Below are positions 16,274 through 37,809 of a DNA stretch of 37,809 bases, piece by piece. The stretch is from Hyalangium sp. (GTDB lineage: Bacteria > Myxococcota > Myxococcia > Myxococcales > Myxococcaceae), in contig NZ_JBJMQP010000096.1 of assembly GCF_045802625.1 (NCBI RefSeq), positions 1-37,809 on the forward strand. Reading direction: 5' to 3'. Under the pieces are notes generated by a model. The model searched no databases, was not told where the DNA came from, and worked only from the letters and a program-made list of their open reading frames with translations. Each line of letters begins with the position of its first letter. Position 1 is the first letter of the stretch. Position numbers and translations under genes: made by a program.

Positions 16274-16326
16274 GGGTCTCCTCGAGCTTGTCGGCCTGGA
16301 CGAAGGTGCGCACGCGCGTGCCAGGG

Positions 16327-17298: not shown

Positions 17299-18609
17299 TC
17301 AGCCAACTCGTTGATCGCTCTGCGCGCTCGTGTCTTCGGGGCCAGGAGAGGCGCTGCGCAGCGTGGGAAGGAAAGTCCGCGCCAGGCCGGCGAACGCGTG
17401 GAGCAGCCGCTTCTCTCCGCGCCGCAGCAGGAGGCAGGTGCGCGCGTTGCGCGAGAGCTCCGCATCCCGGAGGAGCTGCTCGTCCTCCTCCAGCGTCGTC
17501 TCGAAGCCCGCGAGCCGCGCCTCGCAGAGCTCACCGAGCGTACGGAGGACCCGCTCCTCGTTGTCCACGCTCAAGGGCTCAATGACGCCCAGGCCCCCGC
17601 TGGCGTTGGCAGCGGAGGTGATGCTGGCGAGTTCCTCCTCGTTCGCATGGGCCACACGGAGGAAGGAGAACATCGCCGCGGTCGTTGCGTGATCGTAATA
17701 GAGGGGCACCTCGAAGCGGCGCAGCGCGGTGGGGCTGGACAGCCCCAGGAGCTCCCGCTTGACGAGCGCCAAGGGATCACTTTCGGGAATGCCCAGATGG
17801 AGCAACAGCTCATCCTGAGGGTTGTCCTCGGGCACGAAGCCGTAGTTGAGCAGGAAGCGGAAGTTGGACTTGACTCCGTAGCTGATGTGGAATTCCTCGC
17901 CTGCGGACACGGCCTCTCGCGCCACCAACACGAAGGCCGTCTCGTCCGCGGAGGGTCCCCACAGGCCATGGGGAGACTGCCGGTGGTTGAGCATGTCCGC
18001 CAGCGGCACGAAGCACCGGACGAGCTTTCCGCCCAGCTTCATGCCGAAGGTGCGGCTGACGAGCACGAGCTGCGCCCAGAGGAACGCGTCAGGAGTGAAG
18101 CGCGAGAATCCAGGAACACGCTCGCACAGGAAGGCATACTCGCCCAGCAGCAGCGCCCTCCATCTCGCGACCTCCCCCAGCATGGCGGAGCCCTTCAAGA
18201 AAGAGAGGTCGTGCTCGTCGAAGAAGAGGGGCAGGTGAGGGAAGGCGGCCGGCAAGGGATCGAGATAAGGCTTCCAGCAGGAGTTCTCTCGCGAGCGTTC
18301 CTGGAGGAGGAAGGCGGCCAGGCACGACTCCTCGCTCGCGGAAGGGGCATGAGCCGCGATACGGCGGCCGATGTCGGAGGCGCTGGCGACGTCGAACGTC
18401 AACAGGCACCCCCGTGGCACTCGGAGCACCTCCTCGCCCGGAGCAATATCGGCCCGGGCAAAGACGCCGCGCTCGCCGCCCTCCAAGTAGTCGATTCGCA
18501 GTTTGGGGAAGGAGGCTCCTGCCTGTTCAAGCCATTCCAGCGAGAAGGGCTCGTGCGCCGGATGACTGTCCTTTGGGGTACTTGGGTCTGCCTGAAAGTC
18601 GGTGCTCAT
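17299..18609 (-). CDS. SET-domain protein lysine methyltransferase (Rubisco-LSMT/SETD3-like)
   Basis: SET signatures VPLADMLNH and GEEFHISYG, post-SET LLNYGFVPEDNP, and a helical C-terminal substrate-binding-like domain. ATG 18609 is preferred over TTG 18675. Confidence 0.8.
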   Translation of the reverse strand: MSTDFQADPSTPKDSHPAHEPFSLEWLEQAGASFPKLRIDYLEGGERGVFARADIAPGEEVLRVPRGCLLTFDVASASDIGRRIAAHAPSASEESCLAAFLLQERSRENSCWKPYLDPLPAAFPHLPLFFDEHDLSFLKGSAMLGEVARWRALLLGEYAFLCERVPGFSRFTPDAFLWAQLVLVSRTFGMKLGGKLVRCFVPLADMLNHRQSPHGLWGPSADETAFVLVAREAVSAGEEFHISYGVKSNFRFLLNYGFVPEDNPQDELLLHLGIPESDPLALVKRELLGLSSPTALRRFEVPLYYDHATTAAMFSFLRVAHANEEELASITSAANASGGLGVIEPLSVDNEERVLRTLGELCEARLAGFETTLEEDEQLLRDAELSRNARTCLLLRRGEKRLLHAFAGLARTFLPTLRSASPGPEDTSAQSDQRVG

Positions 18610-18811
18610 TGGCTCCGCCGTGCGGCGTGGGTGCGCCAGGAAAGACGTGGCAGCGGAGGTGGTTGTGATTTCCAAGGCTCAGCGAGGCAGGTCCGTGGTG
18701 AAGCTCCAGAGCAGCGAGCCAGGAGGAGTGCGCTCACCCGCCTGTCAGCCAGAGCCCTCGTCCGCTCTCCTGGAGCTCACATCCCTGAAGGATGAGAGCC
18801 TTCTGCATTCC

Positions 18812-21167: not shown

Positions 21168-22931
21168 CTACTCCGGGAGGATGCGCGTCCGCACATAGCG
21201 GCCCGGAGCTGCTTCGATGGGGTGCAACGCTCCATCCCCTGGCGATCGGGCCGGGACACGCGGTCCCGAACGTTCAGACAGCCAGGCGTCCCAGTCGGTC
21301 CACCAGGAGCCCGGCCGCTCCACAGCGCCGGTGAGCCATGCGTCCGCATCCGGCGCCAGTGGCTCTGGCTCGGCCACCCAGTGACGGTACTTGTTCGCCG
21401 CTGGCGGGTTGATGACGCCGGCGACGTGACCGGAGCCCGCAAGGACGAACCGTTTAGGGCCGGAGAAGTGCCGCAGGCCCCGGTACACGGAGCGGAAGGG
21501 AGCGATGTGGTCCTCCCGGCAGGCCTGCACGTAGAGGGGGATGCGTACCCGGCCCAGGTCGAGCGGCGTCTCCCCGAAGCAGAGGGCTCCCGGCTGCACC
21601 AGCCGGTTGTGCAAGTACAGCTCTCGCAAGTAGGTGGCGTGCGCTCGCGCTGGCAGGTGCGTCGGGTCGGAGCTCCAGTACAGGAAGTCGCTCGGGGCTG
21701 GCTCCCGGCCGAGCAGGTAGTTGTTCACCACGAAAGGCCAGAACAGCTCCTTGGCCCGGAGCAGGTTGAAGGTGGTCATCATGTCGACCCCGTCGAGGTA
21801 TCCCCGCTGGCGCATGCTCGCCTCCAGGTGCTCGAGCTGGGGCCCGTCGATGAACGCGCCCAGATCGCCGGGCTCGCTGAAGTCCACCTGCGTGGTGAGC
21901 AGGGTGGCGCTCTGGATGCGCTCGTCTGCCTGGGCGGCCAGGTAGGCCAGCCCCGTTGCCAGCAAGGTGCCACCGATGCAGTAGCCCAGCGCGGACACCT
22001 GCTGCTCCCCGGTGGCCCGGGTGGTGGCCTCGAGCGCGGGCAGCAGCCCACGGAGCAGGTAGTGCTCCAGGTCCACGTGGGCGTGGCTCGCGTCCGGGTT
22101 CACCCAGGAGACGAGGAACACCGTATAGCCGCGCTCCACCGCCCAGCGGACGAAGGAGTTCTCCGGACGAAGATCCAGGATGTAGTACTTGTTGATCCAC
22201 GGAGGGATCACCAGCAACGGGCGCCGGTATACGGTGGCCGTGGTGGGCCGGTACTGGAGCAGCTGGAACAGGGTGTCCTCGTAGATGACCTCGCCCGGTG
22301 TGACGGCCAGGTTCTCTCCCAGCTTGAAGGTGCGGGTGTCCGTCATGCGAGGTGCGAGCCGGCCCTGGCCGCGCTCGAGATCCGTGAGCAGCGCCTCCAG
22401 TCCGGACCGCAGGGTGCGGCCGCCAGACTCCCGCGCGGCGCGGAGCACCTCCGGGTTGAGGACAGGGAGGTTCGAAGGGGCCAGGGCCTCGGTGAGCTGG
22501 CGGGTGTAGAAGCGGGCCTTGAGCGCCGTGGGCCTGTCCACCCCCTGGGCGTTGGCCACCACCTGCTGCAGCCAGTCCGCGCCCAGCAGGTACGAGCGGC
22601 GGGCGAAGTCGAAGAAGGGGTTCTCCGTCCACGCGGGATCGCGGAAGCGGCGGTCCTCTCGCGGCGGCGGCGCGGTCTCGCCAGGGCGCGCCAGGGTCTG
22701 ACAGAGGCTCGCGGAGCGCTCACACAGATCACTCCCCGCCGTCAGCAGCTGCTCGGGGTTCATCGCCGTCCGGAGGAGCACCTCCAGGAAGGCCCGCCGC
22801 ATGTGCCTCAGGGAAGCGTCCTCCGCCGCCTCACTGGCCCTGTGCTCGAGCCAACGCGCCAGCACCCCGCAGGCCCGGGCCATGGCTCGGACCTGCTCCA
22901 GCCGCTGTGCATCTCCATCGTCGGCATCCAT
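21168..22931 (-). CDS. phaC: class I poly(3-hydroxyalkanoate) synthase
   Basis: Lipase box GYCIGG and an alpha/beta-hydrolase core with conserved His/Asp; class I length (587 aa). ATG 22931 with SD AGGAAGGAG 9 nt upstream. The track start (TTG 22964) is less likely. Confidence 0.9.
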   Translation of the reverse strand: MDADDGDAQRLEQVRAMARACGVLARWLEHRASEAAEDASLRHMRRAFLEVLLRTAMNPEQLLTAGSDLCERSASLCQTLARPGETAPPPREDRRFRDPAWTENPFFDFARRSYLLGADWLQQVVANAQGVDRPTALKARFYTRQLTEALAPSNLPVLNPEVLRAARESGGRTLRSGLEALLTDLERGQGRLAPRMTDTRTFKLGENLAVTPGEVIYEDTLFQLLQYRPTTATVYRRPLLVIPPWINKYYILDLRPENSFVRWAVERGYTVFLVSWVNPDASHAHVDLEHYLLRGLLPALEATTRATGEQQVSALGYCIGGTLLATGLAYLAAQADERIQSATLLTTQVDFSEPGDLGAFIDGPQLEHLEASMRQRGYLDGVDMMTTFNLLRAKELFWPFVVNNYLLGREPAPSDFLYWSSDPTHLPARAHATYLRELYLHNRLVQPGALCFGETPLDLGRVRIPLYVQACREDHIAPFRSVYRGLRHFSGPKRFVLAGSGHVAGVINPPAANKYRHWVAEPEPLAPDADAWLTGAVERPGSWWTDWDAWLSERSGPRVPARSPGDGALHPIEAAPGRYVRTRILPE

Positions 22932-22979
22932 CCGAGGCCGCTCCTTCCTGGCAAAGCCGCGCAAGGTGCGCGTCCGCCC

Positions 22980-23708
22980 TCAGAACATGTGCTGCCCACC
23001 ATTGATGGTGAGCGTGGAGCCGGTGATGAAGCTGGCCTCGTCGGACGCGAGGAACACCACGGCCCGGCCGATCTCCTCGGCCCGGCCAAGCCTCCCCACC
23101 GGGATCCGGGAGCGGATCTGCGCCAGGACCTCTGGGGCAACGGCGCGCACCATGTCCGTCTCGATGTAGCCGGGGGCGATCATGTTCACGGTGATGCCGC
23201 GGGCCGCGCCCTCGCGCGCCAGGGCCAGGGTGAAGCCATGCATGCCCGCCTTGGCCGCCGCGTAGCTCGTCTGCCCGAGCTGGCCCGTCTGCCCATTGAT
23301 GGAGCCGATGTTGATGATGCGCCCGAAGCCGCGCTCGCGCATCGCGGGGAGGACCGACCAGCACATGTTGAAGCACGAGGTGAGGTTGGTCTGCAGGACG
23401 TCGTGCCAGTGCGCGGCGGTCATGCGGTGCAGCATGGCGTCCCGAGTGATGCCGGCGTTGTTCACGAGCACCTCGATGGGGCCGCAAGCCTCGGCGATCT
23501 TCTTCACCTCCTGTGCGCAGTGCTCCAGGTTGGACACGTCGAACTGGAACGCGGGGATGCCCGTGCGCTCGGAGAACTCTTTCGCCGACTGCTCGTTGGA
23601 CTTGTAGGTGACGGCCACGCGGTAGCCCTGCTGCTTCAGCGCCTCGGCGCTCGCGGCGCCAATGCCGCGCGTGCCACCCGTGACCAATGCCATGCGCCCG
23701 CTCATCAT
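22980..23708 (-). CDS. phaB: acetoacetyl-CoA reductase (SDR family)
   Basis: MMSGRMALVTGGTRGIG with SDR motifs NNAG and YAAAKAG; 242 aa. SD GAGG precedes ATG 23708. The track ORF adds 115 non-coding-like codons upstream. Confidence 0.9.
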   Translation of the reverse strand: MMSGRMALVTGGTRGIGAASAEALKQQGYRVAVTYKSNEQSAKEFSERTGIPAFQFDVSNLEHCAQEVKKIAEACGPIEVLVNNAGITRDAMLHRMTAAHWHDVLQTNLTSCFNMCWSVLPAMRERGFGRIINIGSINGQTGQLGQTSYAAAKAGMHGFTLALAREGAARGITVNMIAPGYIETDMVRAVAPEVLAQIRSRIPVGRLGRAEEIGRAVVFLASDEASFITGSTLTINGGQHMF

Positions 23709-23760
23709 CTTTCCTCGTTGCTGGGAGATCCGCGCCTGAAGACGGAGCAGCCCGCCGGTT

Positions 23761-23796
23761 TGTGAATCCGCCGGTGCGCGCCTCCACCGATTCACA
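23761..23796. promoter_or_regulatory. inverted repeat TGTGAATC-N20-GATTCACA in the phaB/patatin divergent promoter region
   Basis: Half-sites at 23761-23768 and 23789-23796. Confidence 0.25.
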
Positions 23797-23933
23797 GCCA
23801 GGTGGATCCAGCCGTCCCTCTGCTTGCTGTCCCGTGGAGAGGAGTCCTTGGAGGGTAGTGGTTGGGAGATGCCATCCCCCTCTCCGCGGGGCGGCACGAC
23901 ACGCGCACCGCGCTCACCCGTCAGAGGATGCAC

Positions 23934-25115
23934 ATGACGCAGCAATCCACAGGTCAACCTCAACCGCAGATCATCGCCGTCTTCCAGGGAGGAGGGGCCC
24001 TTGGGGCCTACCACGTCGGGGCCTACCACGCCCTGGAGGAAGCCGGGCTCCACCCGGATTGGATCTCAGGCATCTCCATTGGGGCCTTCACCGCCGCGCT
24101 CATCGCCGGCAACCGCCCGGAGAAGCGGCTGGAGCGGTTGGAGGAGTTCTGGCGGGAGATCTCCTGGCCTGGCACCGAGTGGGGAGCCGCGCTGAAGGGG
24201 CCCTACCGCCAGTTGTTCAACCTCGGCAGCCACATGACGAGTCTCCTGTTCGGCCAGCCGGGCTTCTTCGTCCCTCGGGTGGTTCCTCCCTCGATGGCCC
24301 TCCCAGGCTCGCTCGAGGCGCTGAGCTTCTGCAGCACGCGGCCCATGCGCACGACGCTGCAGCGGTTGGTGGACTTCGACTACATCAACTCCCGTGCGAC
24401 GCGGCTGAGCCTCGGGGCCACCCGGCTGAGTGATGGGCAGATGGTGTTCTTCGACAACACCCGCGAGGCCATTGGCCCGGAGCATGTGCTCGCCAGCGGA
24501 GCGCTCCCTCCGGCCTTCCCGCCGAGCCGCATCGACGGCGAGCTCTACTGGGACGGCGGCTGCGTCACCAACATGCCGCTCAACGCCATCCTCGATGATC
24601 CTCCTCGGCGGCGCACGATCATCTTCATGGTCGATCTGTTCGACGCCGCGGCAGAGCTGCCGCGCACCCAGGATGAGGCGCATTGGCGCATGAGGTCCAT
24701 TCAGTTCGCGGGTAGGACCGCCCACCATGTCGACCAGTTCGCCACCGTGTGGAACCTGCGTCGCGCGGCGACCCAGGCGGCGAGGCAGGCGTCGGCGTCT
24801 TCTCCTGTCTCCTTCAGCGACGCGCCCGCCGCGGAGCCCGCGCCGCGGCTGGACATCATCCACATCAGCTACCAGCGGGGCCGAGATCAGATCGCGGCCA
24901 GCGTTGGCGAGTTCTCACGGGCCTCCATCCAGGAGCGCCGGGCCGACGGTTACCGCGACATGAAGCAGGCCCTGGCGGCTGCCCCGTGGATGCAGGCCAG
25001 CCCCGAGGGGATGCCGCAGGCGTTCAGCGATTCGGAAACGGACCGCTCGGGCGAGGGCGCGGTCGTCCATCGCGTCAACGGCGGGAAGGTCCAGAGCAAG
25101 GTTCACATGCCGTAA
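23934..25115 (+). CDS. patatin-like phospholipase-family hydrolase (candidate PHA-granule lipase or depolymerase)
   Basis: Oxyanion GGGALGAYHVGAY, nucleophile elbow GISIGA and catalytic-Asp motif YWDGG. ATG 23934 with SD GAGG 6 nt upstream. The track start (TTG 23862) is less likely. Confidence 0.85.
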   Translation: MTQQSTGQPQPQIIAVFQGGGALGAYHVGAYHALEEAGLHPDWISGISIGAFTAALIAGNRPEKRLERLEEFWREISWPGTEWGAALKGPYRQLFNLGSHMTSLLFGQPGFFVPRVVPPSMALPGSLEALSFCSTRPMRTTLQRLVDFDYINSRATRLSLGATRLSDGQMVFFDNTREAIGPEHVLASGALPPAFPPSRIDGELYWDGGCVTNMPLNAILDDPPRRRTIIFMVDLFDAAAELPRTQDEAHWRMRSIQFAGRTAHHVDQFATVWNLRRAATQAARQASASSPVSFSDAPAAEPAPRLDIIHISYQRGRDQIAASVGEFSRASIQERRADGYRDMKQALAAAPWMQASPEGMPQAFSDSETDRSGEGAVVHRVNGGKVQSKVHMP

Positions 25116-25132
25116 CCCTGGAGAGAAGACCC

Positions 25133-25504
25133 ATGACCGAGAAGACCAAGAGACCCGAGTGGATGAAGGCGTTCTTCCCGCCCCCGAAGGAAGGCGAGGC
25201 CACGTACAGCGCTCTGTTTGACCTGGGGCGGGCGTCCCTGCTGCAGGCCGCCACCGCTCAGCGAACCGCGCTCGAGTTCTACCGGCAGTTCACGGAGGGC
25301 GATGGCGACGAGCGCTCGCTGCGCGCGTACCAGGAGGGGCTGCTGCGCAAGATGCTGGAGGCCATGGACCCCTTCTTCGCGATCGAGCAGCCGGTGCGCC
25401 AGCAGGCGCTGAAGGCGCAGGCCGCGCTGCTCGATCTGTGCGAGGAGAGCCTGCATGGCTTCCTGAGGTACAACGAGGAGCGGAACAGCTCCAAGTCCAC
25501 CTGA
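25133..25504 (+). CDS. small helical protein, phasin-like (PHA granule-associated), co-transcribed with the patatin gene
   Basis: 123 aa, predicted all-helical and amphipathic (MTEKTKRPEWMKAFF...ALEFYRQF...). SD GGAGAG lies 7 nt upstream of ATG 25133, 18 nt after the patatin stop. Confidence 0.5.
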   Translation: MTEKTKRPEWMKAFFPPPKEGEATYSALFDLGRASLLQAATAQRTALEFYRQFTEGDGDERSLRAYQEGLLRKMLEAMDPFFAIEQPVRQQALKAQAALLDLCEESLHGFLRYNEERNSSKST

Positions 25505-25522
25505 GCCTCGCATTCCATCATC

Positions 25523-25556
25523 ATGCCCCGGGCGAGTCTCCCTTCGCCCGGGGCAT
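25523..25556. terminator. perfect 13-bp GC hairpin between the convergent phasin-like and C25 genes
   Basis: atgccccgggcga-gtctccct-tcgcccggggcat, followed by cgtctttcg on the + strand. Confidence 0.45.
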
Positions 25557-25579
25557 CGTCTTTCGAGGGATGGACTCGC

Positions 25580-27277
25580 TCAGCTCTGCTTCGCGCCCGC
25601 GCGGGCCAACGCCTCGCGGCCTCCTGCCAGATAGAGCTGCTCCCATTGCAGGAGTTGCGTGGGAGTCACCCCCAGCTTTTGAGCGGACTCCAGCCGGCGC
25701 GCGGCCAGCTCCAGCACCGCACGCTCGAGCTCCTCGTGGCCCTGGGGCTTGCTCGGAGGAGTAGGGGCCGGTGGCGGCGCCGTCAGGGAGAGCAGCCCCA
25801 AGGTGGACGGGAGGGTGCTGGCCGGCGCCGGCTGTGCCAGCGGCAGCCGCACCGCGGGATCCCCAAGGAGGATGTAGCCGCCCAGATCCTGGCGGAGCAT
25901 CCACAGGTGGGCCCGCTGCAGCGGATCCACTGGTGAGGGCCGCCCGGCGCCCCGGGCCTCCTCTTCCTGATCATACAGCGTGGTCAGCTCGAGGTTGGCC
26001 TGGTGGCCCCCCCGCAGCAGCCACCCCAGGCCCACTCCGGCGCGGCGTCCCCGCGCGAACTGTTGCAGCGGCTCCAGGAAGCGGGAGGTCTTGCCGCGGC
26101 GGCTGTCGCGATCCTGGAAGCCATACGTCCAGGCCAGGTCCACGTGGCCGAAGACCGCCAGCGGCCCGTTCGGGTTGGCCAGCGCGGCCTGGGGCAGCGC
26201 GGCGACGAAGGGCCGCTCTCCGGGCTGCGGGAGCGAGGAGGTGATGGAGTCGAGCCTCCCGCTGAACTGCCCCCCTGCCTGGAGCTGCCGCAGCCAATGC
26301 TGGAACGCGCTCCGCGACGGAGTGCCCGCGCCGAAGCAGGCGAAGAGGAACCAGATGCCGCCCGGCAGGAAGGGCCGGCTGGCCAGGGAGGCGCCGTCCA
26401 GGTGTAGTCCTTCCCCCAGGTTCATCGCGCCCTGGAGCGCGAGCTTCTCGTCCGTGCTGCGCCAGCCGGCGCGCGGGCTGCCGAGCCCGTGGCTCATGCT
26501 GAAGAGGATCCCAGGCCGTGGCTGTGATGCCTGCTCGAGCAGCTCGGTCACACCGCCCTTTCCGGGCCCCCCGAGCTCTAGCAGCTCCCGCATGGGGAAT
26601 CTGCCCAGCTCACGGGCCTGCTGGGCGGCGACGAGGCCTGGCGCCACCAGCGCCTGGTAGCCCGTGGAGGTCGCCGCGGTGCCGTCATGGACCGTGAAGA
26701 AGAGCGCGCGTGCCTGCTCCTCGGTGGAGGGCTCGCGCTCCCAGCGGAGCACCTTCGCCACGTAGGACTCGTAGTCCTGCTCGCGCCGGAAGGCCAGCCG
26801 CCCGACGAAAGCACTGCTGGCCGCGCACTGCTGCAGCTCGAAGGGCACCTGGTCGAAGTCCCCGAGGAACAACAGGTAGCGCGGCCGATCCGCCACCGGC
26901 ACCGACTCGTCATCGAGCACGGTGCGCACCCAGCGGGAGAAGTGCTCCAGGCTCCGGGCCTCCGCGGCCAGCCCTGGCTTCACCCGGTAGATGCGGACAG
27001 GGTGACCGCCCTGATCCTCCTGCCGCCGCCGGCGCAGGGGCTCGATGAGGGCGAGCAGCCGGTCGCCTTCGGGCCCCTCGGGAGCGACGAGGCCCCAGCG
27101 CTGCGCGGGCAGTGAGTTGGGATCCTCGCCATCATCCCAGAGGTGGCTCTCCTCCCGGGCCTCCTGGGACTCGCTGGGAGGGGCCTGCGCGGCGGCTGCC
27201 GCTGGCACCCCTTGGGGGGTTACGGGTTCGTGGGAATCAGCGTGGACAAGTAACAGCTCCAGGTTCTCCGTGCTCAA
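25580..27277 (-). CDS. gingipain-like (peptidase C25, clan CD) cysteine peptidase with no signal peptide and a C-terminal HTH
   Basis: C25 blocks YLLFLGDFDQVPF, catalytic His ILFSMSHGLGS, catalytic Cys IWFLFACFGAGTP, and GGYILLGDPAVRLPL. After a Pro-rich linker the C-terminus reads LELAARRLESAQKLGVTPTQLLQWEQLYLAGGREALA, which resembles the IS3 OrfA HTH. TTG start at 27277. Confidence 0.7.
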   Translation of the reverse strand: MSTENLELLLVHADSHEPVTPQGVPAAAAAQAPPSESQEAREESHLWDDGEDPNSLPAQRWGLVAPEGPEGDRLLALIEPLRRRRQEDQGGHPVRIYRVKPGLAAEARSLEHFSRWVRTVLDDESVPVADRPRYLLFLGDFDQVPFELQQCAASSAFVGRLAFRREQDYESYVAKVLRWEREPSTEEQARALFFTVHDGTAATSTGYQALVAPGLVAAQQARELGRFPMRELLELGGPGKGGVTELLEQASQPRPGILFSMSHGLGSPRAGWRSTDEKLALQGAMNLGEGLHLDGASLASRPFLPGGIWFLFACFGAGTPSRSAFQHWLRQLQAGGQFSGRLDSITSSLPQPGERPFVAALPQAALANPNGPLAVFGHVDLAWTYGFQDRDSRRGKTSRFLEPLQQFARGRRAGVGLGWLLRGGHQANLELTTLYDQEEEARGAGRPSPVDPLQRAHLWMLRQDLGGYILLGDPAVRLPLAQPAPASTLPSTLGLLSLTAPPPAPTPPSKPQGHEELERAVLELAARRLESAQKLGVTPTQLLQWEQLYLAGGREALARAGAKQS

Positions 27278-27451
27278 TGCGTGTCCTCCGGCAAGGAGCG
27301 CCCAAGAGGTGGGCGCTTGCCAGGAGGACGCGGCAGGCCCTGGCCGTGTGAGTCATTGGAGGAGACATGGGTGAGACGCGCGAGCCCGGGTGATGGTGAA
27401 CTCCGCTCGCTGCCCTCATGGTGGGCAGCCGCGGTCACCGCCAGGCTTTGT

Positions 27452-27541: not shown

Positions 27542-27853
27542 ATGTCATCCGCAGCCCAACTCTCTCATTACATCATCGCGTTCGCGGGCGCCGCGCGCAC
27601 CGCTCAGAAGCTCATGTCCTCGGGCATGGATCCGATGACGATCGCCGAGTACTACTTCGAGGTGAACATCACCTCGGACTTCGAGCTGAAGAGCGAGACG
27701 GACGTCACCCTCAACATCTGGCGCATGAGCATCAAGGAGAAGCTGACGCTCGACTACAAGGAGCACATGGGCATCACCGTGAAGTGCACCATCAAGCCCT
27801 CGGCCGTGCTCGCCGCCCAGGCCAGCGGTGGCGGCGGCGGCGCGGCGTCCTGA
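27542..27853 (+). CDS. small hypothetical protein A (103 aa)
   Basis: Perfect SD AGGAGG 5 nt upstream of the ATG and high GC3, but overall GC is lower than genome average. No known motif. Gly-rich C-terminus. Confidence 0.7.
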   Translation: MSSAAQLSHYIIAFAGAARTAQKLMSSGMDPMTIAEYYFEVNITSDFELKSETDVTLNIWRMSIKEKLTLDYKEHMGITVKCTIKPSAVLAAQASGGGGGAAS

Positions 27854-27962
27854 TAGGGCACGCCTCTCCCTGACAACCCAGATCTGACAATCAGCACCGC
27901 CGGTGTTCCCTCTGGGAGCGCCGGCGGTGCTGGCACGCCAGCTACCCCTCATTGGATCTCCC

Positions 27963-28409
27963 ATGGCAAAGCCTAACCAGACCACCGATCACGCCCAGGT
28001 TCTCATCCACGATCTCATCCTTGCCGTTCAGTCCTCGTTGGACATCGCTGAGGATACGGCCCGCAAGCACTATTCCTTCTCTGTCGCGGAGCTGGAGGTC
28101 TCCGCCAGCTTCGACTTCGAGATGACGGAGCAGGACAACGACATTCCGGACGACAAGCCGCAGCCCAAGCGCTGGTTCTCGCTCTTCGGCGGCAAGAAGG
28201 AGCCGGCCTCGCGCGCACGCACGCACGACTTCTCGGAGAAGGACTCCAGCAAGCTCACCGTCCGCATGCTGTTCCGGCCTGGCGGCAAGCTCCTGGTGTC
28301 TTCGACGCCGCCGCTGTCAGAGGGCTCGACCGCTCCGGCCGAGGATCCGCCCAGCCAGCCCGAGGCCGCCGAGCCCGCTCCTCCGCCGGCGGGAAAGCGC
28401 TCCAAGTAG
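27963..28409 (+). CDS. small hypothetical protein B (148 aa), paralog of protein A with an insertion and a Pro/Glu-rich tail
   Basis: Shares an N-terminal helix with A, plus HY.F.V / SFDFE / W / LTV blocks (A: YYFEVNITSDFELK..IWRMS..ITVKC; B: HYSFSVAELEVSASFDFEM..RWFSLF..LTVRM). ATG 27963 is preferred over the track start 27903. Confidence 0.55.
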   Translation: MAKPNQTTDHAQVLIHDLILAVQSSLDIAEDTARKHYSFSVAELEVSASFDFEMTEQDNDIPDDKPQPKRWFSLFGGKKEPASRARTHDFSEKDSSKLTVRMLFRPGGKLLVSSTPPLSEGSTAPAEDPPSQPEAAEPAPPPAGKRSK

Positions 28410-28459: not shown

Positions 28460-29461
28460 TCACTTCGCCTGGAAGAGCTTGCGCTTCTCGAAGGCGTCCT
28501 TCACCGCGTCCGAGACCTGGTGCCCCCGCGCGGCCATCAGCCCCGCGACATCCACGGGCTTGGACACCGCGCAGACACCGGTGGGGTTGATCGCCGTCAT
28601 GTACCCATCCCCGCAGTCCGCGCCGTGAGCCTTCAGGATCGTGCCGAACTGCAGCTCCGCCATCAGCCGGAGCAGGTGGTGGGTCCGCTCGACCTCGAGC
28701 TCGGGCGACTCGCCGCGCACCTGATGATCCCAGTGGATGAAGCGCAGCGTGCCAACCGGCGTGTAGTTCCAGTGCATCAAGGCCTGGAAGCGCTTGCCGA
28801 TGTCAGGCACCTGGCGGAGCAGCTCGAGGAGCGATGTCGAGGGGGGCAGGTGCGGGACGGCGTCGTCCTGGAACTCGAAGCGCTGGTGGATGTTGTGGAA
28901 CGGGTAGGCCTTGGCGAACCCCACGTCACCACACTTGGGGGCGGCGAAGGTGAAGATGCCCGCGGGCTCGATGCCCTCGAGGCGGGCGAACCGCATGGCC
29001 GCGAGCGTGGCCATGGCCCCGCCCTTGTTGTGGCCCGTGAGGTAGAGGGGGAGCGTCTTGTCCCCAGCCTGGCGCAGCGCCCGGACCTGCGGCAGGAGCC
29101 GGGACCAGAGCGCATCGAGCGAGCCCCAGAACCCCGCGTGCAGCGCCCCGGGGATGCCAGGCACGGAGATGAGCTCGGCGTGGAAGTCGTTCATCCAGTC
29201 GAGCGCGGGGGCCATGCCTCGCTCCGTGGGAGGCAGGGTGCCGCGGAACGCGACGACCACGGCGTTGAGCGCGCTGCTGCGGCCCACCAGGCACGCGTCG
29301 ACGTGGGGCTTCCCGGCGCCTCCGACGATGGCGACAGGGGCGATGAGTCCGGAGGCGCTGTCATAGGGAGGATAGGAGGAGGAGAACGAGCCATTGGATT
29401 GGACGGCATAGCTGTAGACACTGGCACAGAGCATCTGGCCTTCGAGGGTGGGTGCGGGCAT
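28460..29461 (-). CDS. lipase class 3 / DUF2974 (Mbeg1-like) alpha/beta-hydrolase homolog with Asn replacing the nucleophilic Ser
   Basis: LYLTGHNKGGAMATLAA corresponds to G-H-S-[LK]-G-G in lipase_3/DUF2974. ATG 29461 with SD AGGAAG. No signal peptide. Confidence 0.7.
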   Translation of the reverse strand: MPAPTLEGQMLCASVYSYAVQSNGSFSSSYPPYDSASGLIAPVAIVGGAGKPHVDACLVGRSSALNAVVVAFRGTLPPTERGMAPALDWMNDFHAELISVPGIPGALHAGFWGSLDALWSRLLPQVRALRQAGDKTLPLYLTGHNKGGAMATLAAMRFARLEGIEPAGIFTFAAPKCGDVGFAKAYPFHNIHQRFEFQDDAVPHLPPSTSLLELLRQVPDIGKRFQALMHWNYTPVGTLRFIHWDHQVRGESPELEVERTHHLLRLMAELQFGTILKAHGADCGDGYMTAINPTGVCAVSKPVDVAGLMAARGHQVSDAVKDAFEKRKLFQAK

Positions 29462-29627
29462 GAGCGCTTCCTGTTTGGGGTTGAGATTGGGGGGAGCCCA
29501 ATCGCAGGGGAAGACGCCGCGGGAATGCACCTCGTGAAAGAGCGAGCCGCTTCACTGCGGGAGCCGGCCGCACGTCCTTCAGCACAGCCACCCATTGAAG
29601 GGGGCCTTTGCGCTGGAGAAGCCGCGG

Positions 29628-30350
29628 ATGCCATTGTCGACCAAGCCCGAATACCCTCACGACTACAACCCAGACAACACTTGGAAGAGCCTCGTACCCA
29701 GGGGTGGCAATCCCGCCGCCTGGTTCAAAGGGGCCGCTGGCATGGCCAGCCTCATCCAGGAGCGTCAGGGGGTGGGCTTCACCGAGGGCCCCATCTACCG
29801 GGTGCCCCTGGGCCGCTGTGTAGCGTGCCTGGTCCAGTTCCCGGTCGCCGCGCTGACGATCGAGAGCATCATCCATTACGACACCTACGCCGGGAAGGCG
29901 CTCGGGCCGCAGGATCTGGTGAACATGCACAACGACACGTCCAACCTGACGTTCCTGTGCAAGGGCTGCCACGCCAGCAAGGATCTCGAGCCGAGTACGC
30001 TCTATGACTGGATCATGGAGACCGTGCGGCTCGAGGAGCACGGGACGCGGCTGAGCCAGGTCCAGGTGGTGAGGCAGGCCTGGCTGGACATGGAGCGGGT
30101 CGCGGCGCAGCAGTTCCTCCACATGGACCTGACGGGCCTGCAGCACGTGCTGGCCGACCCCAACCTCAGCCCGAGATCCCAGGCGGCCGCGCGAATGGCT
30201 CGCATCAGCCTGGCGGGCCAGAAGGCGCTCAATGACGCGCACTTCCTGTTCGACTTTCATCTGGCGAAGGATGTGGAGCTGCTGGCCCACCAGCTCGAGG
30301 CCGAGGCCAAGCTCCACTTGCAGCCCGGTAAGTCCAAGCCCGTTCCGTAA
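29628..30350 (+). CDS. HNH endonuclease-domain protein
   Basis: GRCVAC...IIHYD...VNMHNDTSNLTFLCKGCHASKD fits the C-x2-C/H-N-H core, followed by a helical C-terminal domain. ATG 29628; the track gives TTG 29595. Confidence 0.7.
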   Translation: MPLSTKPEYPHDYNPDNTWKSLVPRGGNPAAWFKGAAGMASLIQERQGVGFTEGPIYRVPLGRCVACLVQFPVAALTIESIIHYDTYAGKALGPQDLVNMHNDTSNLTFLCKGCHASKDLEPSTLYDWIMETVRLEEHGTRLSQVQVVRQAWLDMERVAAQQFLHMDLTGLQHVLADPNLSPRSQAAARMARISLAGQKALNDAHFLFDFHLAKDVELLAHQLEAEAKLHLQPGKSKPVP

Positions 30351-31117: not shown

Positions 31118-34100
31118 TCAAGGCCGCGGGGCGGGCGGAGTCCGATCATGCGTCTGTTCGCACGAGGCGGACGCCTGCCGCGCCGGAGCTGGGAGATCGC
31201 CTAGATAATTCTGGCGCTCCCAGGCCGTCAGACAGGCCGAGCTGGCCGCCTGGAGCCGCTCCTGGAGTGAGTCCATGGGGAGGGGCTCGCGCGGGCGCCA
31301 GAGGCGGGCGCTCCCATCCGTGGAGCCGGTGAGGAGCTGCACGTCTTCCCCTTGGGGGCTGAACGCGGCCGATGTCACCTGGCCCTCGTGCGAGGAGAGG
31401 ACGAGGTGGGGCTCCCGGGTATCGCTGGCGAGCCAGAGGCGGACGCGCGCATCCGCGCAGGCGGTGACGAACCGGCTTCCATCCGGGCTCCAGGCGGCCC
31501 AGAGCACCGGGGCTTCGTGCCGGGCGACGAATTGGACCCCGTGGACCTTGCCCCCCTCCACGCGCCAGATGCGTGCCGTGCCATCCTGTGAGGCGGTGAG
31601 CACCCGCGTCGGATCCTGGGGATGGAAGGCCGCCGAGAGGACCCAGTCGTCGTGCCCGTAGAGCGTGGCGAGCAGGTTCCCCTCCGTGCTCCAGATGCGT
31701 GCCGTGCCATCCTGGGAGGCGGTGAGCACCCGGCGGCCATCCGCGCTGAAGGACACGGAGCGGACCTGGGCGCCATGTCCCTCGAGCAGGATGGCACGCC
31801 GCGGGTCGTCCACACGGACGATCCGGGTGGTGCTGGCGCCCGAGGCGAGCGCCACCCACTGTCCGTCGGGGCTGAACGCGGCGCCGAAGAGGGGCTCCTG
31901 CTGGGACACCAGGATGCGGCCCGCCGCGTGCCCATCCGAGGGCCAGATGCGCGCCGTTCCGTCCCGGGAGGCTGTCAGCAGCCACTTCCCATCCTGGCTG
32001 AAGGCCACCGAGAGCACATCCTGGGTGTGCCCCTGCAGCACGCGCATGTGCCGGCCGTCATCCGACCAGAGGCGCACCGCGCCATCCTGCGAGGCCGTGG
32101 CCACCCGCGCTCCGTCAGGGCTGAAGGCAACGGACCAGACGAAGCTGCCCTGCCCGGGCAGTGGGCGCGAGTCCCTCGGCTCGTCCATTCTCCAGACCCT
32201 CGCGGTGGCGTCGACGGAGCCCGTCACCATCTGCTTCCCATCCGGACCGAAGGCACCCCACAGGAGGGTGGAGCGGTGCCCTCGCAGGATCCGCGGGGGC
32301 TCGGAGTCGTGGACGGACCAGAGCCGCGCGGTGGTGTCCGAGGAGACGGTGAGGATCCGGTCTCCCAGCGGGCCGCTGAAGGTGGCCATGCGGACGGCAC
32401 CCTGGTGTCCGCGCAGCACCCGGGGCTCGCCGCTCCCGTCCGCCCTCCAGAGCCGGGCGGTGTTGTCCACGGAGGCCGTCACCACCCACTGCCCATCCGG
32501 GCTGAAGCGCGCGGTGGTGAGCTCCCCCTGGTGCCCCTTCAACAGCACGGGTCCTCCCAAGCCGCTGACAGGCCAGATGCGGGCGATGCCATCCCGCGCG
32601 ACCGTCAGCACGCGGGTCCCCTCCGGATCGAACAGGGCGGAGGTGACGGTGGCGGCATGAGGCAGTTCGCGGGGACTGGCTGGCGCATCGAAGGACAGGA
32701 TGCGCGCCTTGCCATCCTGCGAGGCGGTGACCAGCCTCTTCCCATCCGGGCTGAAGGCCACGGTGGAGACGGGGCCCTGATGACGCAGGACGAGCGGCTC
32801 GGCCACGGTCTCGAGCGACCACACCCGCGCCATTCCATCGCGCGAGGCGGTGGCGATCTGCCGTCCATCCGGACTGAAGGCGCCCCACTGGACCACGCCG
32901 CGGTGTCTGAACTCTCGCAGGAGGTGTCCATCCGAGGTCCGCCACAGGCGCGCCGTCCCATCGTGCGAGGAGGTGAGGACCAGCGCCCCGTCTGGAGGGC
33001 TGAAGGTGGCGTGGTAGACCGGCCCCTCGTGGCCCGCCAGCACGAGGGGATCCCCCTCGCCATCGGTCCGCCAGATCCGCGCCGTACCATCTCGCGACGC
33101 CGTCACCACACGCTGCCCGTCCGGGCTGACCTCGACGTAGACCACGGCCTCCTGGTGGCCTCGCAGCACGGCGCGGCTCAGAGGTTGTTGGAGGACCTCC
33201 GAGACATCCCTGTCCCAGCCCTGGAGCTGCGACGGCTCCTGGATCTCGCGCAGCGTGAGCAGGGCCAGCGTGGGGTTCTCGTGCAGCATCGTCCGGGCCA
33301 CGCCCAGCCGGATGAGATCCCTGGCGCGCAGGGCGTACCGCTGCGCCTCCTGCCGCTCCCGCTGCTCCTGGGCCTCGTGCCGCCTGGCGTTCCAGGCCAG
33401 CCCCGCCATCGCCGCGGCAACCCCTATCGCCGCGGCGAGCAGCCCCAGCAGGCGGCGGCGGGCGGCCTGCTGCCGGGATTCGGCGCTGGCCACACTGGCG
33501 TCGATGAGCTGGAGCACGTCCGCGCCAGGATCCTCGTCGTACCGCTCCAGGACACGCTGGGAATACCCGAGCCGGCTGCCAGAGAGCAGATAGGGGGCTC
33601 CTCCATCCGCGTCTTCCCGGTGCGCCAGCCACGAGCGAGCCCAGGCTTGGAGCTCTCGGAAGTGCTGGAGGCGCTCGCGGTCCGCCAACGCCCACTCCAC
33701 GAGGGCAGGCCAGGTGCGGATCAGCGACTCGTGGGAGAGCTGCAACCACTCTTCGCCCGCCTGGCCCTCCTCGCGGATGAGGAGCCGGGCGGTGAGCAGC
33801 GCCTCGAGGACCTGCTCGAACGCGTCGCGCGCCTCCTGCGCCGTGGGGCGTACGTGCTCGAGCATCGCCCGCCTGCGCGTGCCCGGGGAGGCGCCGTGCT
33901 GGAAGTCCACCAGCTCCACCAGGAGCCTGCGCGCCTGGCGCTGCTCGGCGGGGGACAGCGCCGCGTAGAGGCGATCCGCTGCCCGCGTCAGCGCCCCGGC
34001 TACCCCACCAATGGCTGCATAGGCGCGGTGGGTGAGCTGGCCGCCGTCACGCCCCTCCCACAGCTGATCCAGCGCGTATTGCAGCAACGGCAGCGAGCCG

Positions 34101-35860
34101 GGCTCCTGTCCCACGTCCTGGAGGAGCCGATCCACCAGCCCCGGCTCGAACGTCAGCCCCACCTTGTGCGCCGGGCCCACGATGGCGGCGCGGAGCTCCT
34201 CGCCTTGAAGCTCCGTGACGAAGAGGCGGTGAGCGTCGGAATACACCACCGCGTCCAGCCGCGTCCCGGCCTCATCCACCACCAGCTCTCCGCAGCGCCC
34301 GAGATAGTCCACCCGGAGCGTGGCGAGCACGATCACCTGCCGCTCTGGATCTCGCGACAGCTCCCAGAGCGTGGCGGCCAGGGCTCGGCGTGCCTCGGGC
34401 TCCGTCAGCTGGGTGAAGAGCTCCTCGAATGGATCCACGAGCAGCAGCTGGCGCGGACAGGAGGACTGGCGAAGCTGCTGGAGCGTCTCGGTGGGCCCTT
34501 GCCCCGGGCGAAGCACCCGGACCTCCCAGTCGGAGGCCGGGAGCGCATGGAGCAGTCCGGCGAGGGCGAGCGAGGACTTGCCGCTGCCCGAGGCTCCCGC
34601 CAGCACCTGGAAGCGCGGCCGCCGCCCGTCCAGTGACTCCTGGATGCGCTGGAGGAGCTCCTGTAGGAGCCGCTCGCGCCCGAAGAAGAACCGGCGATCG
34701 GTTTTCTGGAAGGGCAGCAGGCCGCGGTAGGGCCGGATTGCCACCGGGCGTGTATCACTCCCATCCTCCGCTCGGGCGTAGAGCTGCACGGAGGCGTAAT
34801 CCAACGACGAGCTGTCGCGTGCGAGCTCGCGCCGGGCCTGTCCCATGGCCTCCTCGAGCGAGCAGGGCTGCGCCAGCAGAGAGCGGTAGAGGCTCGCGGT
34901 GAGCACTGAAGAGCCCGCGATGGACAGGGGCAGACGGGAGGCCACCACCGCCTGGATGCCCGCGCGGTGGAGCGCCTGGGCCACGCTGCCCAGGTGGTTG
35001 CCCGCCAGGCCCGCGCCGCTCTGGCACGCGGCGAGCACCACCAGCCGCAGCGTCCCCGCATGGGGCGCCAGCAGGTGGCGCAGGGTGGCGCCGTCGATGA
35101 GCTCGGGCTCGCCCCCCTCCCACGAGGCATCCCAGAGCAGGCCATAGGTCTGGCCCCGCCGGCTGCCGTGACACAGCAGGTGGAGGATGGAGATGGGTTC
35201 TCCAGGACGGGCCAGCGCCTCCCCGAGCGCCGCGAGCGAGACGTTCGGCAGGACGTCGCGGGCGGGATCAAACGGATGATCGCCCTCCTCGCAAGCCTGG
35301 CTCAGTGCGCGCAGGTGGGGCTTGTCCGGGACATGGCCTCCCGCGGCGGACCAGGCGTAGAGGATGCGCCCGCCCCGCGGTGTCCCGGCCAGAGGCGCGG
35401 CGTGCGTGTCGGGCCACTCGTAACGGATGAGGACACCGGGGAGCTCGGCCAGCGCTTGCCCGGAGGTCCCCAGCGTCAGCAGCTCCCAGGGCAGCGCGTA
35501 AAGCTCGGCCGCGGCGAAGCGGAAGGTGAGGTGCACGGGGCGCCCTTGCTCCACCGCGGCGAGGATGTCGCGTGCGTGGGCATTCCAGCCCACCCCCTCC
35601 AGAAAGGTCCGGAGCCGGTCCCCCAGGCGCTGCACCACGCTTCGGTCTGGCTGGAGCCGCTCCAGCTCCGCCAGGTCCGCCAGCAGCGGGGGCTCCCAGG
35701 AGAGCGCCGCTCGCGCATAGCTCCCATGCGCCCGGCGCAGCAGGTACTCCTGGGGCTCGAGCCGGAAGTGGAAGGGATCTCCCGCATCCTGGCCGCGCAC
35801 CAGCTCCAGGAGCAGCTCGAGCGGGGCGGCCTTTCTGATCACCGGGGAGGACATGTTCAC
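31118..35860 (-). CDS. CHAT (caspase-like) protease-STAND NTPase-TM-WD40 multidomain protein (1580 aa)
   Basis: CHAT His/Cys dyad at ISILHLLCHG and LVVLAACQSG. P-loop GASGSGKSS, Walker B LLLVDPFEE. One hydrophobic helix LLGLLAAAIGVAAAMAGLAW at aa 803-822. About 14 WD40 repeats from aa 895 to the end. The GTG start overlaps the SBP stop (GTGA); ATG 35854 is the alternative. Confidence 0.85.
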   Translation of the reverse strand: MNMSSPVIRKAAPLELLLELVRGQDAGDPFHFRLEPQEYLLRRAHGSYARAALSWEPPLLADLAELERLQPDRSVVQRLGDRLRTFLEGVGWNAHARDILAAVEQGRPVHLTFRFAAAELYALPWELLTLGTSGQALAELPGVLIRYEWPDTHAAPLAGTPRGGRILYAWSAAGGHVPDKPHLRALSQACEEGDHPFDPARDVLPNVSLAALGEALARPGEPISILHLLCHGSRRGQTYGLLWDASWEGGEPELIDGATLRHLLAPHAGTLRLVVLAACQSGAGLAGNHLGSVAQALHRAGIQAVVASRLPLSIAGSSVLTASLYRSLLAQPCSLEEAMGQARRELARDSSSLDYASVQLYARAEDGSDTRPVAIRPYRGLLPFQKTDRRFFFGRERLLQELLQRIQESLDGRRPRFQVLAGASGSGKSSLALAGLLHALPASDWEVRVLRPGQGPTETLQQLRQSSCPRQLLLVDPFEELFTQLTEPEARRALAATLWELSRDPERQVIVLATLRVDYLGRCGELVVDEAGTRLDAVVYSDAHRLFVTELQGEELRAAIVGPAHKVGLTFEPGLVDRLLQDVGQEPGSLPLLQYALDQLWEGRDGGQLTHRAYAAIGGVAGALTRAADRLYAALSPAEQRQARRLLVELVDFQHGASPGTRRRAMLEHVRPTAQEARDAFEQVLEALLTARLLIREEGQAGEEWLQLSHESLIRTWPALVEWALADRERLQHFRELQAWARSWLAHREDADGGAPYLLSGSRLGYSQRVLERYDEDPGADVLQLIDASVASAESRQQAARRRLLGLLAAAIGVAAAMAGLAWNARRHEAQEQRERQEAQRYALRARDLIRLGVARTMLHENPTLALLTLREIQEPSQLQGWDRDVSEVLQQPLSRAVLRGHQEAVVYVEVSPDGQRVVTASRDGTARIWRTDGEGDPLVLAGHEGPVYHATFSPPDGALVLTSSHDGTARLWRTSDGHLLREFRHRGVVQWGAFSPDGRQIATASRDGMARVWSLETVAEPLVLRHQGPVSTVAFSPDGKRLVTASQDGKARILSFDAPASPRELPHAATVTSALFDPEGTRVLTVARDGIARIWPVSGLGGPVLLKGHQGELTTARFSPDGQWVVTASVDNTARLWRADGSGEPRVLRGHQGAVRMATFSGPLGDRILTVSSDTTARLWSVHDSEPPRILRGHRSTLLWGAFGPDGKQMVTGSVDATARVWRMDEPRDSRPLPGQGSFVWSVAFSPDGARVATASQDGAVRLWSDDGRHMRVLQGHTQDVLSVAFSQDGKWLLTASRDGTARIWPSDGHAAGRILVSQQEPLFGAAFSPDGQWVALASGASTTRIVRVDDPRRAILLEGHGAQVRSVSFSADGRRVLTASQDGTARIWSTEGNLLATLYGHDDWVLSAAFHPQDPTRVLTASQDGTARIWRVEGGKVHGVQFVARHEAPVLWAAWSPDGSRFVTACADARVRLWLASDTREPHLVLSSHEGQVTSAAFSPQGEDVQLLTGSTDGSARLWRPREPLPMDSLQERLQAASSACLTAWERQNYLGDLPAPARQASASCEQTHDRTPPAPRP

Positions 35861-37056: not shown

Positions 37057-37809
37057 GATGCACCTCGTGTCCGTGCAGGCGCCGGCTCGCCCAGGTGAAC
37101 CCGGCGCCGAGCAGGAGCGCCATGACGCCAAGCCACCCAAAGGCCTGGAACCGGTTCGGGTAGATGAGCAGCAGGGCGCTGACGAGCATGGGCCCCAGGC
37201 ACTGCCCGAGTCTGCTGATGAAGCGATGGAGGGCCAGGGACGTCCGCTCCTCTCCGCCCCCTTCCTGAGAGCGGGTGAGATGGCGCTCGAGGGGCGCGTG
37301 GATGAGTCCGTGAGACAGCCCCAGCAGCCCCAGCGCCAGGGCGCACAGCGCCTCTTCGCTCAGCCAACTCCCGAGTGCGGGCAGGGAGTCCACGAACCCG
37401 AGCGCGAGCAACCCCAGCCCAGTCCCCGCCATGCCAGCTTGGAGCAGCCTCCGCGGCCGGCCGGGCCCGCTGGGGAGCACGGTGAGCAGGTGATGGGACA
37501 GCATCACGCCCAGCGCATAGATCGCGAGCAGCTGACCGATCCGATCCAGGTCATAGCCCCTGCGCGTCAGCACCAGAGGCAACGCGAAGGAGAGGAGTCC
37601 GCTGCGGATGAGCAGGGTGGGTATTCCCACGAGCAGGGTCGCTCCGTGGAACCCTGGAGCCTTCCACGCCCGTGCCAACCCGGAGAGGGACGAAGGAGGA
37701 CGGGAGCGGCGAAGCACGGGGGGAGTGGGTCTGCTCCGAGGCGGGAGAGGAGGCAGAAGCACCAGCGCGTACGCCAGCGCAAGCAGGCCCGCGAGGCCGC
37801 TCAGCAGGA
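37049..37809 (-). CDS. MFS-type transporter, C-terminal half (5' end beyond window)
   Basis: At least 6 TM helices, with an MFS-like loop LTRRGYDLDRIGQ. The reading frame stays open to the window edge. Confidence 0.6.
   Translation of the reverse strand, partial: LLSGLAGLLALAYALVLLPPLPPRSRPTPPVLRRSRPPSSLSGLARAWKAPGFHGATLLVGIPTLLIRSGLLSFALPLVLTRRGYDLDRIGQLLAIYALGVMLSHHLLTVLPSGPGRPRRLLQAGMAGTGLGLLALGFVDSLPALGSWLSEEALCALALGLLGLSHGLIHAPLERHLTRSQEGGGEERTSLALHRFISRLGQCLGPMLVSALLLIYPNRFQAFGWLGVMALLLGAGFTWASRRLHGHEVHHA

Follow-up and report, generated by a model that had tools for sequence, protein, structure and literature searches.

A predicted cytoplasmic gingipain-fold protease family of Myxococcota with a helix-turn-helix tail and recurrent linkage to CHAT-nSTAND1 sensors

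Introduction

The gingipains RgpB and Kgp of Porphyromonas gingivalis (MEROPS C25, PF01364) are endopeptidases specific for Arg or Lys and, to our knowledge, C25 peptidases have almost solely been known as virulence factors secreted by Bacteroidota. This work deals with a homologue from the myxobacterium Hyalangium sp., encoded on the minus strand at positions 25580-27277 of a stretch of 37,809 nucleotides (assembly GCF_045802625.1, contig NZ_JBJMQP010000096.1, positions 1 to 37,809), hereafter the window. The protein shares only about 13% identity with RgpB and Kgp and differs from them in the absence of a signal peptide, the N-terminal prodomain of about 200 residues, the immunoglobulin (Ig)-like domain and the C-terminal domain of the type IX secretion system (T9SS). 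Moreover, its family belongs to Myxococcota and not to Bacteroidota, is predicted to be cytoplasmic, carries an N-terminal motif and a C-terminal helix-turn-helix (HTH) domain, and has its genomic ties with sensors resembling NOD-like receptors (NLRs) instead of secretion machinery. With moderate confidence, we regard this gingipain-fold protease with an ancestral HTH tail as a second protease partnered with CHAT-nSTAND1 conflict or programmed-cell-death systems.

Signalling assemblies in which a STAND NTPase is combined with proteases of the caspase fold offer the closest points of comparison. The apoptosome of Apaf-1, caspase-9 and caspase-3 consists of a STAND NTPase with a WD40 sensor, an initiator protease of the caspase fold and a separate second protease of the same fold. 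It serves as an analogy only. In the locus described here, the sensor and the initiator-like CHAT domain form one protein, the part of second protease would fall to a gingipain-like enzyme, and CARD or Death adaptors are absent. The CHAT-nSTAND1 conflict systems described by Kaur, Burroughs, Iyer and Aravind (PMC7159879, PMC8195603) resemble the present case in their caspase-superfamily head, nSTAND1 NTPase and WD40 or TPR repeats, in their bias to multicellular bacteria and in their variable accessory effectors, such as calcineurin-like phosphoesterases and alpha/beta-hydrolases; neither gingipain nor C25 occurs in the two articles concerned (eLife 2020, PMC7159879; eLife 2021, PMC8195603). 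They differ in the means of coupling, which in the family studied here does not proceed via a shared effector-associated domain (EAD), the tail being absent from the partner proteins. Furthermore, in the type III-B CRISPR-CBASS system of Haliangium ochraceum, a filament-forming SAVED-CHAT protein cleaves and activates PCaspase, which in turn cleaves a sigma factor and an inhibitor (Steens et al., bioRxiv 10.1101/2023.06.23.546230). A myxobacterial sensor-CHAT protease, in that case one that oligomerises, is encoded together with a second clan-CD protease, as here; however, PCaspase is a C14 caspase (PF00656) and its sensor is a cA3-binding SAVED domain, unlike the C25-like protease and the nSTAND1-WD40 sensor of the window. 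By analogy, and with no claim of membership, this system, the nearest one to have been characterised by experiment, may be taken as the closest working model.

The Protease Domain and Its Cellular Location

A first-pass annotation, made from the sequence of the window alone, had assigned the protein to the C25 peptidases and described it as an intracellular enzyme with catalytic His and Cys residues in place. These claims are borne out. The protein matches PF01364 (Peptidase_C25) with 26.3 bits (cutoff 23, E 5.3e-6), and precomputed matches to the same profile are present on many of its homologues. In its fold, the catalytic domain resembles gingipains more closely than it does the remaining families of clan CD, and its closest structural relatives are the secreted gingipains. 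A search of the PDB sequences with the full-length protein gave nothing significant. The catalytic residues, located in SHG and FAC motifs as annotated (Table 1), are kept in 108 of 108 family open reading frames (ORFs) in the case of His and in 106 in the case of Cys, and the two ORFs devoid of the latter are also devoid of the tail. Residues D198, R160, H378 and D380 are invariant among the family ORFs and are candidates for lining the substrate pocket. No signal peptide or transmembrane segment was found in the protease, the first 12 residues of which carry a charge of -2 and which reaches a maximum Kyte-Doolittle score of 1.19 over 19 residues. The gingipain-type prodomain, Ig-like domain and T9SS sorting domain were not found either; the catalytic domain is preceded by only about 50 residues and followed by a linker and the HTH tail. 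By its intact dyad and these features, the protein is predicted to be a catalytically competent, cytoplasmic cysteine peptidase of the C25/gingipain family.

The residues that precede the catalytic domain hold a linear motif with the consensus LxLLLxHADDxxPVLxxGLP, conserved across the 108 ORFs (L8 in 107, L9 in 102, L10 in 99, A13 in 85, D14 in 91, and P18, L20, G23 and L24 in 97, 97, 95 and 97, respectively). Residues 1-50 are modelled as disordered, with predicted local distance difference test (pLDDT) values below 50, and this motif is a candidate docking or processing site. A short strand-like element, h-x-L-L-L, is shared by the N-termini of the protease and of the CHAT-nSTAND1 protein (LELLLVHAD and LELLLELVR, residues 6-14 of each in the window). 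That a shared LELLL motif pairs both proteins was considered and set aside as unproven, the pattern being strand-like, only five or six residues long and devoid of clear covariation within loci.

Genomic Linkage to CHAT-nSTAND1 Sensors

The feature that the first-pass annotation overlooked, and which is the most informative one, is the recurrent neighbourhood and fusion of the protease with CHAT-nSTAND1 NLR-like proteins. An exhaustive profile search retrieved 1,340 clusters at 50% identity (E<=1e-30), and the family is centred on Myxococcota. The loci looked up first were picked by hand (the window, L001-L005 and the L006 group, in which L006-L008 were counted as one place) and span an orthologue, paralogues, Minicystis, Pyxidicoccus and an environmental lineage; in all seven distinct loci, a CHAT-nSTAND1 gene lies within about 0.1-5 kb of the protease gene. 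An unbiased survey of 80 loci from species-representative genomes, 55 of them with full flanks of 10 kb, tempers this linkage but upholds it. A strong match of the same CHAT-nSTAND1 type was present in 28 of the 80 loci and directly adjacent on the same strand in 16, an outcome with P of about 5e-12 assuming even 100 such genes per genome. Where the flanks were complete, a CHAT-type protein stood in the neighbourhood in 42 of 55 loci, and at least one recurrent partner of the module in 50.

Across 84 non-redundant clustered loci, these partners comprise the CHAT-nSTAND1 protein (35 loci), a Metallophos-like protein of about 470 residues (21), a separate CHAT family of about 690 residues (16), an uncharacterised protein of about 546 residues (10), TPR-CHAT proteins (7) and an uncharacterised protein of about 250 residues (5). 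Recurrent gene orders, in which C25H stands for the protease, are STAND>C25H>, TPR-CHAT>U250>C25H>STAND> and CHAT2>STAND>MPE>U546>C25H>C25H>. The protein of about 250 residues, encoded upstream of some paralogues, was examined as a possible bacterial gasdermin and rejected, with no similarity in PDB, Pfam or PADLOC; the same three sources gave no similarity for the neighbour of about 546 residues. In the Vitiosangium and Archangium loci (L016, L017), from five to seven small paralogous genes in tandem (cluster c29) lie downstream of C25H>STAND>.

Of the 80 loci in the survey, 21 hold a second, tandem member of the protease family. Such pairs are commonly about 25 bp apart (L002:6330-9671, L004:6312-9677 and, in Sorangium, L046, L049, L050, L066 and L075), and in both members the dyad is intact and the tail usually retained. 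Together with double proteases fused in one polypeptide (P0141, P0145), these pairs hint at a hetero-dimeric function.

Fusions provide a further form of linkage. Among the best 150 of the 1,340 clusters, six proteins join the protease to a CHAT domain, in both orders: three are C25-CHAT-nSTAND1-WD40 and the others C25-CHAT-AAA_16, C25-CHAT and CHAT-nSTAND1-C25; in addition, there are protease-protease tandems and one lipase-protease fusion. In the CHAT fusions, the complete N-terminal region of the sensor follows the protease via a linker of 70-90 residues, and the tail is absent from six of six. Since the tail is missing from all of them, the constant coupled unit appears to consist of the protease and the CHAT-STAND sensor, and the tail may be required only when both are separate polypeptides, or may have been lost in the fusion event itself.

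In the window, the likely partner is a protein of 1580 residues (Table 1) with a CHAT domain (74 bits, residues 110-351), an nSTAND1 domain (316 bits, residues 377-751) and WD40 repeats amounting to about two beta-propellers; it also scores 110 bits against a SAVED_CHAT-type model of PADLOC. This sensor gene is syntenic in the orthologous loci L001 and L010-L014. The order STAND, GH19-like gene, two small orphan genes and protease is kept in Hyalangium, Cystobacter and Corallococcus, which fits a linkage between sensor and protease but also plain synteny among relatives. The start of the sensor gene overlaps a preceding ABC_sub_bind-like gene (35857-37140) by 4 bp, a pairing that is alike in Cystobacter fuscus (L001).

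The Linker and the C-Terminal Tail

The protease domain is followed by a disordered linker, which across the family ranges from 0 to 111 residues (median 35) and is rich in Ala (21%) and Pro (19%), and by a helical tail in which the first-pass annotation had recognised a resemblance to the HTH of OrfA from insertion sequences (IS) of the IS3 family. This resemblance holds for the family more firmly than for the protein that suggested it. Taken alone, the tail of the window is marginal, below the Pfam cutoffs, with 24.3-24.8 bits for HTH_28 (cutoff 25) and 13.5-18 bits for HTH_Tnp_1 (cutoff 24.1). When 36 diverse tails of the family were scanned singly at E<=0.01, HTH_28 was matched by 22 (best 1e-10), HTH_Tnp_1 by 19 (best 5.5e-7), HTH_29 by 18 and HTH_23 by 15. 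The family tail is thus, as judged by profile similarity, a real HTH-type domain, for which DNA binding is plausible. The likeness to IS3-family OrfA (PF01527; HTH_28, PF13518) extends over helices 2-3 and the next helix (xxGVSxxxLxxWxxxYxxxGxxAL). In contrast to OrfA, the domain is C-terminal and not N-terminal and is, on average across the family, charge-neutral; a leucine zipper, OrfB, a DDE domain and IS ends are all missing. Moreover, in the subclade of the window gene, three residues are deleted between helices 1 and 2, and an AlphaFold2 model of the tail alone (pLDDT 93) consists of two long helices (5-26 and 30-55) forming a helical hairpin. A fold search with this model returned generic helical hairpins only, and the top matches of a tail profile among PDB sequences, designed repeat proteins, were discarded as an artefact. 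The tail was also considered as a shared homotypic adaptor, and a tail hidden Markov model (HMM) gave no significant match on non-family ORFs in 88 loci. A weak match of this HMM at 10821-12521 of the window, taken at one point for a second family member, belongs to an unrelated FHA-GAF-sigma54 activator with a Fis-type HTH.

The distribution of the tail bears on its origin, for which an in-frame relic of an IS insertion had been offered as one of two options, the other being a regulatory DNA-binding domain. Of 108 family ORFs from 84 loci, 84 (about 78%) carry the tail, as do most of the 120 best-matching homologues in the database; among these are paralogues of only 45-55% identity that belong to Cystobacterineae, Sorangiineae and Nannocystineae. 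Because this distribution spans distant paralogues and suborders, the tail is considered ancestral to the family. The closest orthologues, those of Corallococcus and Myxococcus (L010-L015), are about 80% identical and fully syntenic and stop right after the protease domain, without linker and tail. A hairpin and the convergent gene known from the window come next, and neither a remnant of the tail nor an IS is present; the state of these orthologues is best described as a clean loss. Other family members carry different C-terminal modules behind the same linker in place of the tail. In L041, L044 and L061, from about 320 to 600 residues follow the protease, with further alternative modules in L051, L054, L057 and L060; one such module is a large domain with the conserved motif ...STAAINTYDxQIVTWGTGWGGLG... 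and another is a long acidic region of low complexity ending in ...PIRVRWRFSW. The family may have captured a transposase-type HTH long ago, when it first arose, and this would represent the recruitment of a domain and not a relic.

Gene Model and Surroundings in the Window

The ORF proposed by the first-pass annotation is real. Its composition is of the coding type (G+C content at third codon positions, GC3, 0.87), and its TTG start is preceded by a Shine-Dalgarno sequence (Table 1). The product is 100% identical to a protein from a metagenome-assembled genome of Hyalangium sp. (P0001), annotated there with 542 residues. The deposited start is considered to lie 23 codons too far downstream, since the Shine-Dalgarno sequence and the alignment of the N-terminus MSTENLELLLVHAD... 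with those of homologues support the start that yields 565 residues. The deposited start also cuts the N-terminal motif off the public record of P0001.

Table 1. Features of the protease locus and its likely partner, in forward-strand coordinates of the window.
Feature	Position	Strand	Basis or remark
C25-like protease gene with HTH tail, complete, 565 residues	25580..27277	-	Stop TGA 25580-25582; GC3 0.87; ORF list
Shine-Dalgarno sequence GGAGGA	27284..27289	-	6-nt spacer to TTG start 27275-27277; read from sequence
N-terminal linear motif, residues 6-25, LxLLLxHADDxxPVLxxGLP	27203..27262	-	Conserved across 108 ORFs
Gingipain-fold (clan CD, C25-like) protease domain, residues about 51-485	25823..27127	-	
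Catalytic His263 codon, within SHG (residues 262-264)	26489..26491	-	His in 108/108 family ORFs; codon verified
Catalytic Cys314 codon, within FAC (residues 312-314)	26336..26338	-	Cys in 106/108 family ORFs; codon verified
Ala/Pro-rich disordered linker, residues 486-511	25745..25822	-	pLDDT <50
HTH_28/HTH_Tnp_1-like helical tail, residues 512-565	25583..25744	-	HTH_28 match at residues 532-558; family-wide matches
Perfect hairpin, 11-bp arms GCCCCGGGCGA / TCGCCCGGGGC, 8-nt loop	25525-25535 / 25544-25554 (25525..25554)	.	Sequence
Two small orphan genes, 103 and 168/148 residues	27542-27853, 27903-28409 (27542..28409)	+	Divergent from protease; conserved beside orthologues
CHAT-nSTAND1-WD40 NLR-like protein, 1580 residues, likely functional partner	31118..35860	-	Pfam, PADLOC, synteny

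The gap of 75 bp that had been noted at the 3' end of the protease gene, without IS body or terminal repeats, is exact (25505-25579) and contains a hairpin only; it separates the gene from a convergent plus-strand gene ending at 25504. This hairpin is probably a bidirectional terminator for the convergent genes and not an IS end, and comparable hairpins are located 3' of the protease genes of orthologues. A consensus terminator scan of the region found no T-run terminator, an absence common in high-GC DNA. The convergent gene (25130-25504, plus strand, 124 residues), also kept downstream of the orthologues, has a weak match to TRADD_N (16.3 bits, cutoff 25) that may be due to chance; TRADD-N is a known domain of conflict systems.

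Five genes lie between the protease and the sensor: the two small orphan genes, a Lipase_3 gene, a gene with a weak HNH motif and a GH19-like gene. The orphans have no match in Pfam, NCBIfam-type models or PADLOC, and their homologues number only 16 in 5.8 billion proteins, all within the synteny group of Hyalangium, Cystobacter and Corallococcus; the possibility that they are Trypco2-like was rejected, as those three sources gave it no support and the 16 homologues are narrowly distributed and domain-less. The Lipase_3 gene (minus strand) and the HNH-motif gene (plus strand, 251 residues), both within 28460-30350, are absent from the orthologous locus of Cystobacter fuscus and constitute a small insertion of effector-like genes between sensor and protease. 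On the other side of the protease, a cluster for polyhydroxyalkanoate (PHA) synthesis (PhaC and a PhaB-like short-chain dehydrogenase/reductase) and a patatin-like phospholipase occupy 21168-25115; these genes are syntenic in relatives and probably serve housekeeping functions. Farther away, two minus-strand genes encode eukaryote-like enzymes, namely a protein-arginine deiminase (14321-16369, PAD match of 92 bits) and, at 17299-18675, a SET-domain protein whose substrate-binding domain is of the Rubisco-LSMT type.

Proposed Role and Alternative Explanations

The role of a second protease is inferred from the way in which members of the family recur next to, or fused with, NLR-type NTPases that combine a caspase-like CHAT domain with nSTAND1 and WD40 or TPR repeats. 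The standard architecture comprises the conserved N-terminal motif, the protease domain, the flexible Ala/Pro linker and the tail of about 50 residues of the HTH_28/IS3-OrfA type. In the proposed cascade, for which SAVED-CHAT and PCaspase of Haliangium ochraceum offer a precedent, the sensor would oligomerise and its CHAT domain would become active; the gingipain-like protease would then be recruited, processed or both, with the N-terminal motif and the linker as candidate sites, and would next cleave downstream targets. The tail would most probably tether or position the protease on DNA, on a protein partner or on itself, and would be dispensable once the protease is fused to the sensor. The direction of activation and the biological output are likewise parts of this proposal. 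A more specific version is tentative and rather doubtful: in an apoptosome-like pathway of two proteases in myxobacteria, the CHAT-nSTAND1-WD40 sensor, once triggered, would recruit and process a cytoplasmic gingipain-fold executioner, whose transposase-derived HTH tail would either fasten it to the nucleoid or invading DNA, or be cleaved off so as to reprogram transcription.

Several observations weigh against a partnership of this kind. In the window, the sensor lies 3.8 kb from the protease, separated by the five genes in mixed orientation, and the co-regulation of these non-adjacent genes is unproven; the linkage by operon or fusion is seen across the family and not in the window itself. 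About a quarter of the loci with full flanks (13/55) have no CHAT-type neighbour. Myxobacterial genomes are rich in CHAT and STAND genes, the surveyed loci are phylogenetically non-independent, and the number of 100 genes per genome is an assumed one. The fusion proteins are metagenome gene calls and could be read-through artefacts. As regards the tail, a simple DNA-binding function is weakened because the tails are charge-neutral and that of the window clade is modelled as a hairpin; nor is it an adaptor of the homotypic EAD kind, since no partner protein was found to carry it. Furthermore, adjacent unfused pairs mostly retain the tail, while the syntenic Corallococcus orthologues lack it. 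Finally, NCBIfam and PADLOC scans of the protease gave no match, PADLOC holding no model for this protein, and literature searches found no study, experimental or other, of the gingipain-like family.

Some of these points are shared by a different explanation, namely that the protein is a self-contained regulator without a functional tie to the STAND protein. In this view, the HTH would attach to an operator on the chromosome and the protease would control the release or turnover of itself or a partner, the proximity of STAND genes resulting from shared variable islands. The tail is an HTH-clan domain under purifying selection, the protease gene of the window forms a transcription unit of its own, with Shine-Dalgarno sequence and terminator hairpin, at a distance from the STAND gene, and genes for extracytoplasmic function (ECF) sigma factors recur nearby, in line with this explanation, as are the loci without CHAT-type neighbours. 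However, the same-strand adjacencies and the six independent CHAT(-nSTAND1) fusions are hard to square with mere co-residence in islands, the tails are not basic, and the protease was retained where the tail was lost, both in all six fusions and in the orthologues of Corallococcus, which makes the protease, and not the HTH, the constant element. On balance, such a regulator is improbable. It is very unlikely that a predatory myxobacterium exports the protein as a degradative protease, like other gingipain-type enzymes, by non-classical secretion, e.g., in outer-membrane vesicles, even though its closest structural relatives are secreted and genes for hydrolases (Lipase_3, patatin, GH19-like) lie nearby.

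Least credible of all, and to be given next to no weight, is the idea that an ordinary C25 gene recently received an IS3-family insertion at its 3' end and that the tail is an in-frame relic of it. The appeal of this idea lies in the matches to the transposase-type HTH_28 and HTH_Tnp_1, in one homologue named in the database after the HTH of IS150 InsJ and in the close Corallococcus orthologues without tail. Yet the tail follows a variable linker throughout a family of more than 1,300 clusters, including paralogues from different myxobacterial suborders, and neither a transposase nor an IS end or target duplication lies nearby, the short gap behind the tail holding only the hairpin. Tail-less orthologues beside an IS3 element would have pointed to a relic, and those of L010-L015 have neither an adjacent IS nor a remnant, in agreement with clean loss; moreover, a tblastn search of 72,556 plasmids with the tail, aimed at relatives among IS OrfA proteins, gave no match.

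Conclusions and Implications

Two corrections to current annotation follow from this analysis, concerning the deposited start codon, placed too far downstream, and the naming of some homologues after IS150 InsJ. More broadly, the family stands out, on the genomic record, as a large uncharacterised branch of C25 that is predicted to be intracellular and sensor-associated in social multicellular bacteria. If the partnership with CHAT-nSTAND1 systems is true, a new class of protease would be added to bacterial cascades of cell death and immunity, and the sensor-CHAT protein and the gingipain-like protease would make a tractable two-component pair for studying how such cascades are wired. Should the apoptosome-like pathway also prove true, it would represent the first intracellular function of the C25 family linked to immunity or cell death.

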